47,047 bases of DNA from a phage: the sequence record OZ335955.1. One strand, given 5' to 3'. A program made the translations under genes and the position numbers. Under the pieces are notes generated by a model that ran no database searches, was not told where the DNA came from, and worked only from the letters and a program-made list of their open reading frames with translations. Shown in pieces: positions 10,310 to 46,526 of this stretch (its first letter is position 1; each line of letters opens with the position of its first letter).

Positions 10310-10798
10310 TTACTTTAATGCTCCGTGATTTTTATGGAAACAATATTTTTCCTCAGCTGCTTTTCTGCATTCTGCAGCCATTGACAAGTTTGAGAATCTG
10401 CCAAGCGCAATCTGCTTTCCGTTCACGGCAATCTTTGCATACCATTTCTTACTCTTGTTATCCCAACTAACTCCGACAACATTACTCGTGTTATCAGATC
10501 GCATAGAAAGATTCTTAGCGTTCTGCTTTCTGCTTACCAATCTGAGATTCTCAATCCTATTATCATCACGAATGTGGTTTATATGATCAATCTCCATCCC
10601 CTCTGGTATCTCACCATTGTGCATTTCCCAAATTATTCTATGCATCAGTCGCACTTTTCCAAAGCAATGAACCTGCATGTACCCATTACCTGCCATGCTT
10701 CCTGCCAGCCTCCCTATTTTCATGTTTCTGTTTGTTTTTATCTTCCAATATAGCAACCCATCACGGTATTCGAACACATCATTCCAATCCATCATCAC
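10310..10798 (-). CDS. HNH homing endonuclease (HNH + AP2-like domain)
   Basis: EIDHINHIRDDNRIENLRLVSRKQN HNH motif followed by VVGVSWDNKSKKWYAKI AP2-like region. Confidence 0.85.
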   Translation of the reverse strand: MMMDWNDVFEYRDGLLYWKIKTNRNMKIGRLAGSMAGNGYMQVHCFGKVRLMHRIIWEMHNGEIPEGMEIDHINHIRDDNRIENLRLVSRKQNAKNLSMRSDNTSNVVGVSWDNKSKKWYAKIAVNGKQIALGRFSNLSMAAECRKAAEEKYCFHKNHGALK

Positions 10799-10994: not shown

Positions 10995-11093
10995 ATTTAC
11001 TACTCCTTCTCGAAAAACATCTTGACGTTTCTACATCACTTAGTCAATACTTATTGACGTAGATTGTACCACAACGGAAAAGGTGATGTGGAA

Positions 11094-11291
11094 ATGCGAT
11101 ACAAAAAAATAGCAGCGAGATACCAGAAAGAAGTGCGCGAGGTTATGGAAATCCTTAACGTTCGCGAAGATACCATTAAGTATGTGGAAACTGCCATGTG
11201 TTCACTTGCTCTTGAAGCGGAGGTTGCTGGTCGTGAAAAGGCTGACGAACTTATATCTGCGGTTGTTTATAGTTCAACCAGTAACGGTTGA
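11094..11291 (+). CDS. hypothetical protein
   Basis: ORF-track 11064..11291 starts at TTG; ATG at 11094 preceded by AAGGTGA. Confidence 0.4.
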   Translation: MRYKKIAARYQKEVREVMEILNVREDTIKYVETAMCSLALEAEVAGREKADELISAVVYSSTSNG

Positions 11292-11351
11292 GGATGAAGG
11301 TTATCTGTGCGTTGAGCACGTTGTTATTAAATTCTACGGGAGAAATTACAA

Positions 11352-11546
11352 ATGGCGCATGACGAACTGTACGAAGAATCGTTAATCCAGCTACTGAATG
11401 AAGTTGAGCGCACACGCGAATGGCTGGAGTGCGAGCTGCGGGAAGTGCGTAACCGCCTGCAACGCAAACGCAGCCAGCAGAAGGACGTTATCGACTGGTC
11501 TGGCGATACACCTAAATTTAATAATCTTGGGGAGTGGTTGAAATGA
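11352..11546 (+). CDS. hypothetical protein
   Basis: 64-aa ORF, coiled-coil-like composition. Confidence 0.4.
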   Translation: MAHDELYEESLIQLLNEVERTREWLECELREVRNRLQRKRSQQKDVIDWSGDTPKFNNLGEWLK

Positions 11547-11764
11547 GAAAGTTCAGCACGTTAGTTGATTTGATTCTCGCTGACATCAGAGAGTCCAACG
11601 CCAGAAACAAGAAGTCAAGAAATCAGCAGCAGGATATTACGTTTCGCACACTACTTAAGCAATCGATGCGCGGCAAAAAGGAATGGAGATACAGGCGCGA
11701 CCGAGTTCTGATAAGACTGTGCAAGTTGAACATGAACAAGATACTTAAGGATATGACCAAATGA
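11543..11764 (+). CDS. hypothetical basic protein
   Basis: ATG at 11543 overlaps upstream stop (ATGA); Lys/Arg-rich. Confidence 0.4.
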   Translation: MRKFSTLVDLILADIRESNARNKKSRNQQQDITFRTLLKQSMRGKKEWRYRRDRVLIRLCKLNMNKILKDMTK

Positions 11765-12009
11765 GCGCACCACATATGCCGATGATGAATTATGAGGGAT
11801 TGCTGGATTGCCCATTCTGCGGGAGCGGCGAGACGACAATGGATAGAGAGGATGGGTTATCGCAAGTTGTTTGCTTGGGGTGCGGCATTGCAACTGATTT
11901 ATATCAACAGAAATCAATCATAATTAAAAAATGGAATACCAGAAACGGACACCTCTACACCGCAGACGACTTCAATCAGGCAGCAGAGGAGCGCGATCAT
12001 GGACTATAA
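11761..12009 (+). CDS. Lar-family restriction-alleviation-like zinc-ribbon protein
   Basis: CPFCGSG...VVCLGCG...KKWNTR matches the CPFCG / C-x2-CG / WN-R pattern of Lar family proteins. Confidence 0.55.
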   Translation: MSAPHMPMMNYEGLLDCPFCGSGETTMDREDGLSQVVCLGCGIATDLYQQKSIIIKKWNTRNGHLYTADDFNQAAEERDHGL

Positions 12010-12487
12010 ATCACAAATCATGCGCGTGATTATCAATCATCCAGGCGCAACGCGTGCATATATTGAAAAGCATTGCGGAGGAAAGCATTCAAGCACCACA
12101 ACGCATCGTTTGCATGAGATGCTCGCACTTGGCTTTATTAGCCGCGAGAAGTCAGTTATTCGTGGTGGTAAGTGGCAGTATAAATATTTCATCTCTGATG
12201 ATGCGGCTGGCATTGATGATGCGATTAAGTGCCATTTGCTTGATAACACTGGCGCAGAGGTGAAAGAAATCAGCGCAGCCACTGGCATTGATTACCGGAT
12301 CGTAAAAAGCCGCATCCGCATTATGTTTCATAACGGTGATGTGACGCGAAGCTATGACCACCATAAGAAGCTGTGGCGTTATTCATGGAAGGAGAAGGAA
12401 GTCAATGTAAGCAATCTATTTAATTCACTTCTTCGCAACGCAAGGGGGCATCATGGGGAAAGCCAAACGCAAGAAGCAGGAGTATGA
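11999..12487 (+). CDS. putative winged-helix DNA-binding protein
   Basis: 162 aa; two segments resembling winged HTH modules. Confidence 0.35.
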   Translation: MDYKSQIMRVIINHPGATRAYIEKHCGGKHSSTTTHRLHEMLALGFISREKSVIRGGKWQYKYFISDDAAGIDDAIKCHLLDNTGAEVKEISAATGIDYRIVKSRIRIMFHNGDVTRSYDHHKKLWRYSWKEKEVNVSNLFNSLLRNARGHHGESQTQEAGV

Positions 12488-12629
12488 GCCATTGCCGCCA
12501 TGCGAAATGTCAGGAATGCCGCAGCAGGAGGATGTAATTCTTACCGAGGCAGAGTGGCGCAAAGTGGCAAGAGTGCAAATCATGTTCCGCAAACTTGCTG
12601 AGGACGTACTTAATGAGATGGGCTATTAA
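12453..12629 (+). CDS. small hypothetical protein (58 aa)
   Basis: ATG preceded by AGGGGG; overlaps 3' end of 11999..12487 in another frame; below ORF-track cut-off. Confidence 0.25.
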   Translation: MGKAKRKKQEYEPLPPCEMSGMPQQEDVILTEAEWRKVARVQIMFRKLAEDVLNEMGY

Positions 12630-13011
12630 GCATAAATCTGGCAGAACTCTGTTTGAAACATCGGATGAGTTTATTGCCAATAACCGTAAAGAGATGGGCT
12701 GGGTAGTGGAGGAAGTGAAGATGACGAGTAGAGAGCAGTTTGAGAAATTCATAATGTCTGTGGCTGGCAATGTGTCAATGCAGACATTCATGGTTCATGA
12801 CTCGATTTATTATAAAGACGCCCACATACAAGGTATGTGGAGAGCATGGCAGGCATCACGCGCAGCAATTGAGATTGAGTCTCCGGATTTCGTTGATTCA
12901 AGAGCGGCATTAAATAAAGGCTACACAGTTGATTACTCCAATGGATTTGGCGACGCAATGGATGCATATGAACTGGCAATTGAGCAAGCAGGCTTAAAGG
13001 TGAAAAAATGA
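12613..13011 (+). CDS. hypothetical protein
   Basis: ORF-track 12595..13011 starts at TTG; ATG at 12613. Confidence 0.45.
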   Translation: MRWAIKHKSGRTLFETSDEFIANNRKEMGWVVEEVKMTSREQFEKFIMSVAGNVSMQTFMVHDSIYYKDAHIQGMWRAWQASRAAIEIESPDFVDSRAALNKGYTVDYSNGFGDAMDAYELAIEQAGLKVKK

Positions 13012-13334
13012 TCATCCCATTAAACGACATTATGAAAGCAGACATCATTCAGCTTGAAGATTATGACATGCAACTGGCATTTGAAATTGAAACCGTTGAA
13101 CGGCAGCTTCAATATGCAGATAAGAAGAATGATCGAGTCTGGCATGAGAAAGCACTTAAGGCACGAGACCACATGAAGCGCACGCGAGCACTTATTAAAA
13201 CGCGTCTTGATAAGCTGTATTTTGGTGAGGAAAGGATGTTGCATGGCGCGATACTGGCACAAATCCGTAAGGAAATGCCGATCGGCAAGTTCATGTCATA
13301 CGTCCACCGGGCGAAGCAGGAGGCTGGGTTATGA
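13008..13334 (+). CDS. hypothetical protein
   Basis: 108-aa ORF, ATGA overlap with upstream gene. Confidence 0.45.
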   Translation: MIIPLNDIMKADIIQLEDYDMQLAFEIETVERQLQYADKKNDRVWHEKALKARDHMKRTRALIKTRLDKLYFGEERMLHGAILAQIRKEMPIGKFMSYVHRAKQEAGL

Positions 13335-13477
13335 TTCCGTTACTGTGGATATTATCAGCCTACGCATTCGCGAGAGTATTTGAGGCTGATACTCTGTACC
13401 AGATGATTTGCTATGGCGCTCTGTTCTGCCTGTCAGGTGCTGCGCTCGCATTCATGGATGATGTGATTTCAGACTAA
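13331..13477 (+). CDS. small membrane protein (48 aa)
   Basis: ATGA overlap with upstream stop; hydrophobic product. Confidence 0.3.
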   Translation: MIPLLWILSAYAFARVFEADTLYQMICYGALFCLSGAALAFMDDVISD

Positions 13478-13532
13478 CACCGTATATCTTTTGTTCATCA
13501 TGGGCTGCTATCATTTAATCAGGAGGTAGCCC

Positions 13533-13655
13533 ATGAATATAATCCCTATCACTTACTTTCTCACGCTATACGCGCTCACAGACTCACCATTGTTTGCACT
13601 GGCTACCGCCTCATGGTGCTATATCTCCCTGTGTTATAATTCGACCACAAACTAA
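13533..13655 (+). CDS. small hydrophobic protein (40 aa)
   Basis: AGGAGG 6 nt upstream of ATG; not in ORF track. Confidence 0.3.
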   Translation: MNIIPITYFLTLYALTDSPLFALATASWCYISLCYNSTTN

Positions 13656-17615: not shown

Positions 17616-17788
17616 CACTTCACCTTAATCATATGTTGTTTTGCAACCTTCAGGCATTCCTCAAAAATGCCGCCCTTCTTTGCGCTCTGATTGCGCTTGT
17701 AATACTGGATTGCCGCATCAACTGCCATCTGGTCGATGTCTGGCAGCTTGGCGCGAAGTTGTTTTTCTATGAATGATTCTGGAGACAT
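17615..17788 (-). CDS. small hypothetical protein (57 aa)
   Basis: GAGGAT RBS; not in ORF track. Confidence 0.3.
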   Translation of the reverse strand: MSPESFIEKQLRAKLPDIDQMAVDAAIQYYKRNQSAKKGGIFEECLKVAKQHMIKVK

Positions 17789-17973
17789 TTAATATCCTCA
17801 TCATCGAAGTGGCGTTCATTCCATCTTTCTGCCGCATCTTCGGCACCGTACTCGCTTCTCTTTTCAGTGCCACAATAACCGCATTCAACAACAAACCTGT
17901 CCTGCCAGTTATTATCAATGAATGCCGATGGTGTATTTCCGCAAAACGGGCATATTTTTAATTTAATCATCAC
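17767..17973 (-). CDS. Lar-family restriction-alleviation-like zinc-ribbon protein
   Basis: KICPFCGNTP...FVVECGYCG...ERWNERH; same pattern as the 11761..12009 product. Confidence 0.55.
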   Translation of the reverse strand: MMIKLKICPFCGNTPSAFIDNNWQDRFVVECGYCGTEKRSEYGAEDAAERWNERHFDDEDIKCLQNHS

Positions 17974-46442: not shown

Positions 46443-46526
46443 CTGATTTATAATAATTAATGCGGCTAGGGGGCACCCGAAAAGCGACTCATCACCGCCT
46501 GCCGCATTCACTTCAATGATGCCCTG

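Follow-up and report, generated by a model that had tools for sequence, protein, structure and literature searches.

The window analysed here, a phage DNA stretch of 47,047 nucleotides (OZ335955.1), represents the roughly 47 kb genome of a siphophage of the Skatevirus group, and the subject of this analysis is a small gene within it, designated Lar1, at 11761..12009 on the plus strand. This gene is an ordinary and already annotated member of the Lar family of restriction alleviation proteins, with a putative function; its unexpected feature is an arms-race-like polymorphism, in which a central cassette of the protein differs greatly between otherwise closely related loci.

The Lar1 gene and its product

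The coding sequence begins with ATG and specifies 82 amino acids before the stop codon (MSAPHMPMMNYEGLLDCPFCGSGETTMDREDGLSQVVCLGCGIATDLYQQKSIIIKKWNTRNGHLYTADDFNQAAEERDHGL). A sequence-only reading of the window had recognised in this open reading frame (ORF) the motifs CPFCG, C-x2-CG and WNTR, and all three can be read as described, the second as CLGCG. The first zinc knuckle, CPFCG, spans residues 17-21 (11809..11823, plus strand) and the second, CLGCG, residues 38-42 (11872..11886, plus strand). The description of WNTR as C-terminal holds only in part, as the motif (residues 58-61, 11932-11943) closes the Lar domain rather than the protein and is followed by 21 further conserved residues, an acidic tail (NGHLYTADDFNQAAEERDHGL) with which it makes up the conserved C-terminal segment at 11932..12006 (plus strand).

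The four cysteines (C17, C20, C38 and C41) and the residues W58-N59-T60-R61 are invariant or nearly so across 41 homologues. In alignment A1, C20 is invariant and C17 and P18 nearly invariant; W58, N59 and R61 likewise do not vary, and the C-terminal tail is almost unchanging in the alignment. T60 is present in 67/67 orthologues from IMG/VR, a set of loci that falls into two phage clades and is used throughout the comparisons below. The strength of the Pfam match (E = 1.2e-11), the presence of orthologues in 202 phage records and dN/dS values of 0.10-0.22 together indicate that Lar1 is not a chance ORF. The ATG shares bases with the TGA stop of the gene upstream (ATGA), and 11 nt at the 3' end are shared with the start of the gene downstream, which implies that Lar1 is one of a series of translationally coupled small genes extending over 11094-13478.

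The protein is acidic, with a net charge of -6 and a pI of 4.7, and this is typical of the 67 orthologues (median net charge -7, median pI 4.5). A predicted structure, confident over residues 8-66, comprises a zinc ribbon and a helix, with a beta hairpin at residues 25-38 and the helix at 51-59; the tail is modelled as a helix at residues 68-80 with low confidence. In three loci (L070 401-643, which is phage Bas78, together with L062 and L063) the conserved tail is replaced by a variant, GGFVYSN(A/S)DYEDIN(N/D)EVRS.

Family membership and distribution

The proposed assignment to the Lar family is borne out by profile searches. The Pfam model PF14354 (Lar_restr_allev) matches Lar1 at 45.1 bits (E = 1.2e-11), above its gathering score of 28.6 bits, over profile positions 2-58 of 58, and the protein has the architecture of that family: two CxxC knuckles providing four cysteines (Cys4), then a helix carrying WNxR. 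PHROG 599, 'Lar-like restriction alleviation protein', is matched at 51.6 bits (E = 2.8e-13), and the best matches of the Lar1 model in BFVD, a library of predicted viral structures, are mostly Lar-family proteins, all with E >= 1.5e-3. A search of PDB sequences returned weak matches to GATA, eIF2-beta and TFIIB zinc fingers, the best being GATA-3 (E of 8.9e-5 for the whole sequence, and only 0.19-13 for individual domains); these were set aside as generic, arising from the common C-x2-C-x17-C-x2-C spacing.

Membership of this family was already known, and the identification as originally stated adds nothing new. An identical protein is present in nr under UVY18996.1 and DAL83436.1 as 'Lar family restriction alleviation protein'. 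Full-length orthologues were found by tblastn in 202 cultured phage records, all of Skatevirus or Roufvirus type (Salmonella 124, Klebsiella 46, Escherichia 20), many of which already carry the Lar annotation, and the gene is listed in the core-gene table of the proposed Skatevirinae (PMC11769527). More widely, searching 1.84 billion representatives with a profile recovered 6762 relatives at E <= 1e-3. Only a handful of these matched over the full length, which suggests that the subfamily with terminal extensions is confined to the Skatevirus/Roufvirus group of phages; across the Pfam family as a whole, conservation is limited to the knuckles and WNxR. Many of the wider relatives consist of 2-5 Lar domains in tandem, 100-450 residues in all (for instance P0107, P0114, P0172 and P0200). 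Domain fusions were considered as a clue to the target of Lar proteins and proved uninformative, as the long relatives carry only repeated Lar domains and no other Pfam domain was found in them.

A hypervariable core within a conserved frame

The 67 orthologous loci comprise a Skatevirus-like clade A, which includes the window and in which most of the surrounding genes have 87-100% identity to those of the window, and a Roufvirus-like clade B, in which they are 35-68% identical. Within each clade the termini of Lar1 (the first 12 residues with the first CxxC, and the segment from WNTR to the end) are 82-87% identical. By contrast, the 37 residues of the core (21-57; 11821..11931, plus strand), which include the second knuckle, have a mean pairwise protein identity of only 39-41% in both clades. 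The same discontinuity is seen in the DNA, where nucleotide identity in clade A is 0.32-0.55 over 11821-11928 and 0.75-0.90 in the flanks.

Single linkage at 60% divides the cores into 21 cassette types, three of which are common to both clades. The core of locus L006, from clade A, is 100% identical in protein and 95% identical in DNA to those of L064 and L038, from clade B, whereas the flanks are only 80-83% identical, which points to recent transfer of the cassette. Within types, the core has a dN/dS of 0.22, indicative of purifying selection, while comparisons across types show saturation of synonymous sites (pS 0.74). Taken together, these values imply that the alleles are old and constrained, and are the product of neither neutral drift nor hypermutation. 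A diversity-generating retroelement was also considered and rejected, because no template copy of the core was found elsewhere in the window and the saturated synonymous sites argue against hypermutation.

Among five phages of the BASEL collection that come from a single city, four different cassettes are represented. The window's own cassette type is rare: an identity of 80% or more across the full protein is reached by only 4/202 cultured records. The polymorphism of the cassette places Lar1 among the fastest-diversifying loci of an otherwise conserved module. A core that is variable, yet kept by selection and exchanged within a conserved neighbourhood, is the pattern expected of a protein that engages polymorphic host factors. 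One can tentatively go further, to a proposal that is rather less likely to be right than wrong: that in the Skatevirus/Roufvirus group Lar1 is a constant frame, of 20 N-terminal and 25 C-terminal residues, around a swappable 37-residue 'specificity cassette', of which at least 21 old alleles would be maintained by balancing selection and shuffled between clades, each tuned to a variant of host defence. The proteins would then be polymorphic, modular anti-defence binders, rather than agents of a single anti-EcoKI function.

The gene neighbourhood

Around Lar1, the DNA is 87-92% identical to that of Salmonella phages LPST49 and D10, Escherichia phages Bas77-81 (PMC11990801), Shigella phage DS8 and others. 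The cluster of small proteins previously noted at 11094..13478 is real, consisting in the ORF list of small co-directional ORFs. It is placed between a leftward block and the head genes, which start at 13594, directly downstream and in the same direction. The description of this cluster as early-gene-like is unproven, given that it is co-directional with the head genes and only a weak promoter-like site (11022..11051, plus strand, 9/12 consensus matches) lies ahead of it; the number of such sites found in the region by the consensus scan is not above shuffled expectation.

Directly upstream of Lar1 is a DUF7301 gene (11534..11764, plus strand; PF23975, 81 bits), which is absent or divergent in many relatives. 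Downstream lies a gene for a MarR-like winged-helix protein (11999..12487, plus strand; PHROG 1687, 1.9e-58), which adjoins Lar1 in 66/68 IMG/VR loci and is annotated beside Lar in Klebsiella phages. Its product is 87-95% identical at almost every clade A locus, as against 55-65% for Lar1. This neighbour also has a weaker match, over residues 63-135, to PHROG 142, 'Ren-like exclusion protein' (6e-7), and in Bas78 an HNH endonuclease gene directly follows the Lar1 orthologue, in the place where the MarR-like gene would be. Further downstream, a PHROG 343 gene (12595..13011, plus strand) is only 43-88% identical among relatives. The variability of this gene and of the DUF7301 gene means that Lar1 is not the sole variable member of an otherwise conserved cluster.

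The leftward block includes an HNH endonuclease gene (10310..10798, minus strand; PHROG 99, 5e-67). Most close relatives show no alignment over 10500-10738, within this gene, and it is therefore probably a mobile insertion. A scan of the window with Rfam gathering scores found only two tRNA genes (22453..22525 and 22535..22619, both minus strand) and an int-alpA small RNA motif (46459..46522, plus strand; 42.6 bits, gathering score 35.8).

A second Lar-family gene

Lar1 had been labelled a first copy, implying a second, and such a gene does exist at 17767..17973 on the minus strand. Its product of 67-68 residues matches PF14354 at 40.2 bits and passes the cut-off of the NCBIfam model TIGR03655 (44.3 bits against 39.6), but has only 25% identity to Lar1, and the gene is a separate accessory paralogue outside the Lar1 operon. 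A tblastn search of cultured phages revealed no close homologue of copy 2 in Skatevirus relatives, the best matches, in myoviruses of Pectobacterium and Cronobacter, being less than 60% identical. The gene occupies a variable slot, directly downstream of a ParB-like gene and ahead of a RusA-like gene. The same slot holds a DNA methyltransferase gene of 798 nt in Bas79 (L074 999-1796) and an unrelated gene of 83 codons in phage Akira (L075 989-1240), and other relatives are annotated there with a C-specific methylase. The slot thus looks like an accessory hotspot with an anti-restriction theme, and the presence of a methyltransferase in this position in relatives lends mild support to an anti-restriction role for copy 2.

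Restriction of related phages

The effect of type I restriction on phages carrying a Lar1 orthologue can be gauged from published platings. The nearest cultured relatives with the orthologue are there called 'markedly sensitive to RM systems' (PMC11990801). The raw data of that study give plating efficiencies under EcoKI of 0.04-0.1 for Bas77, 0.02-0.03 for Bas78, 0.03-0.1 for Bas79 and 0.04-0.2 for Bas80, each of which has one EcoKI site, and of 1e-4 to 1e-3 under EcoCFT_I for all four, with two EcoCFT_I sites in Bas77 and three in each of the others (PMC11990801). The orthologue is present in 4/4 of these phages in the form of three different cassettes, between which sensitivity to type I systems is similar in these figures. 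It follows that the orthologue confers no strong protection in Bas77-80; a partial effect like that of the Ral protein of phage lambda would be compatible with the data. A PhageMaP study reported that a Lar homologue in Bas63 matters under certain conditions on hosts whose type I systems are not intact, and proposed a different target (PMC11482910).

Within the window, EcoBI sites are in excess (21, with 5.8 expected) while EcoKI (2 against 5.2), EcoDI (3 against 13.2) and StySPI (4 against 11.1) sites are depleted, as are those of the type II enzyme EcoRI (3 against 13.8). As the expectations derive only from mononucleotide shuffles, these deviations constitute weak evidence. Scanning Lar1, copy 2 and their neighbours with PADLOC yielded no matches.

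The function of Lar1

The reading preferred here, with a probability of roughly 0.4, is that Lar1 is a zinc ribbon that would bind a component of host defence, the leading candidate by homology being the methyltransferase core of type IA restriction-modification (R-M) enzymes. The small, acidic Cys4 protein, produced from a translationally coupled gene of a Skatevirus-like siphophage, would presumably coordinate zinc and bind a host protein, not DNA, and we infer that it may serve as a host-takeover or anti-defence factor. If the likeliest target, suggested by homology to the Lar protein of the Rac prophage, is correct, binding might make the enzyme more inclined to methylate entering phage DNA de novo, and so lead to a partial, not a complete, alleviation of restriction. 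The N- and C-terminal segments, with T45, W58, N59 and R61, would form a constant functional base, and the exchangeable 37-residue core would decide which host variant is recognised. The gene, its class of fold, its family, its conservation, its acidity and the polymorphism of the cassette are demonstrated here, whereas the zinc, the protein partner, the R-M target and the direction of any effect are deduced. In favour of this reading, the window carries type I targets to protect (EcoKI 2, EcoBI 21 and StySPI 4 sites).

A number of results weigh against it. Lar1 is a syntenic core gene across 202 genomes and not one of sporadic, accessory occurrence (PMC11769527), a distribution seldom seen among anti-defence genes. 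Its score against TIGR03655 (anti_R_Lar), 39.2 bits, is 0.4 below the 39.6 cut-off that copy 2 exceeds, and against the RalR equivalog model NF007260 it reaches only 22 bits, with a cut-off of 113 and an authentic RalR at 166. RalR itself, the Lar protein of Rac, is basic (net charge +5, pI 9.1) whereas Lar1 is acidic. As HsdM varies little among members of one type I family, 21 cassette types exceed what a single conserved target can explain. Finally, on the available plating data, Bas77-80 are restricted 5-50-fold by EcoKI through a single site and about 1000-fold by EcoCFT_I. The annotation is commonly taken to mean 'anti-type-I restriction', yet it derives from one prophage protein of 30% identity (1995), later reported as a DNase, and these published platings of the nearest relatives show no strong protection. 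Support for an anti-type-I role of Lar1 does not go beyond the family name. The five engineerable BASEL phages, with their four cassettes, offer a practical entry to the real binding partners of Lar-family proteins.

The main rival, itself doubtful but a serious candidate, is that Lar1 acts in anti-defence or host takeover on a target outside type I R-M, either a different defence system or some polymorphic protein of the host, with each cassette serving one variant of that target. This would accommodate the existence of 21 divergent types of cassette that move between clades and are individually held under purifying selection, and the lack of visible protection of relatives from two type I systems, whatever their cassette, in the available plating data, as well as the conditional importance of the Bas63 homologue on hosts lacking intact type I systems (PMC11482910). 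The tandem arrays of Lar domains also fit a modular binding unit. On the other side, the PADLOC models gave no matches, and the only genetic evidence for the family concerns EcoKI.

An explanation unrelated to defence, that Lar1 works with the MarR-like protein in a regulatory or structural capacity or is an Elf1-like zinc ribbon acting on the transcription machinery, is unlikely. Although the MarR-like gene is a near-constant neighbour, its product retains 87-95% conservation at almost every clade A locus, against only about 40% identity in the core of Lar1, which is swapped independently. A fixed partnership is disfavoured, since such independent swapping of a divergent core would not be tolerated, and the resemblance to Elf1 is only that of a generic zinc ribbon.

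It is less probable still that the variability of the core is non-adaptive, with only the four cysteines and a few anchors needed, the loops drifting and the conserved ends serving as recombination points. The conservation of no more than the knuckles and WNxR across the Pfam family would be consistent with this, as would the pS of 0.74 between types, which makes them old rather than recently selected. However, the dN/dS of 0.22 within types shows each cassette to be constrained, the near-identical cores of L006 and L064 within diverged flanks show that intact cassettes are transferred and retained, and most neighbouring genes display no such drift.

That Lar1 is a non-specific DNase toxin of the RalR type is very improbable: RalR, the founding member of the family, is reported to be a Mg/Ca-dependent DNase toxin that requires residues 14, 37, 39, 49, 51 and 52 for toxicity and loses DNase activity in the K52Q mutant (PMC4041452), and Lar1 has a weak match to the NCBIfam RalR model, but this score is far below the equivalog cut-off (22 against 113), the Lar1 model has no nuclease-like fold, the Rfam scan shows no small RNA near Lar1 (it being unconfirmed that Rfam holds a model for RalA, the small RNA partner of RalR), and threonine at the position of K52, together with a pI of 4.7 as opposed to 9.1, makes protein binding the more likely activity.

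Comparison with known systems

Several small proteins provide points of reference for the preferred reading of Lar1 as a binder of a host defence component. The likeness to transcription elongation factor 1 (Elf1) extends only to the generic fold of a zinc ribbon plus helix, with 15% identity. The DNA mimics Ocr and ArdA are, like Lar1, small and strongly acidic, and are aimed at type I enzymes; unlike them, Lar1 has the unrelated fold of a Cys4 zinc ribbon, and neither a sequence nor a structure match to Ocr or ArdA was found. Ocr confers near-complete resistance to type I systems, a level of protection not displayed by the relatives of this phage.

Resemblance to the Ral protein of lambda would be functional only, in that Ral, a small phage protein that gives partial alleviation, supplies the mode of action proposed for Lar1, and the Ral family does not appear among the Pfam matches of Lar1 at E <= 1. 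Ral turns the type IA enzyme M.EcoKI into a de novo methyltransferase (PMC3874165, PMC12707154), and the Lar protein of Rac is reviewed as protecting incoming DNA in the same manner, by enhancing type I methyltransferase activity (PMC2993543).

The closest comparison is with this Rac prophage protein, Lar or RalR, of E. coli K-12 (64 residues), the sequence of which was verified as RALR_ECOLI by exact look-up. RalR belongs to a type I toxin-antitoxin locus with the small RNA RalA, while Lar1 is encoded in an operon of a lytic siphophage, and Lar1 differs further in its N-terminal extension and conserved C-terminal tail of 21 residues. The RalR residues 14, 37, 39, 49, 51 and 52 map to S22, T45, L47, K57, N59 and T60 of Lar1, and the position of K52, which is T60 in Lar1, is occupied by E in copy 2. 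Nevertheless, the two proteins are members of the same Pfam family and align without gaps over 53 residues at 30% identity (E = 1e-9), with CPFCG, CxxC and WNxR in the same order and at identical spacing, and the conserved T45 and N59 of Lar1 stand at the positions of T37 and N51, both needed for RalR activity.
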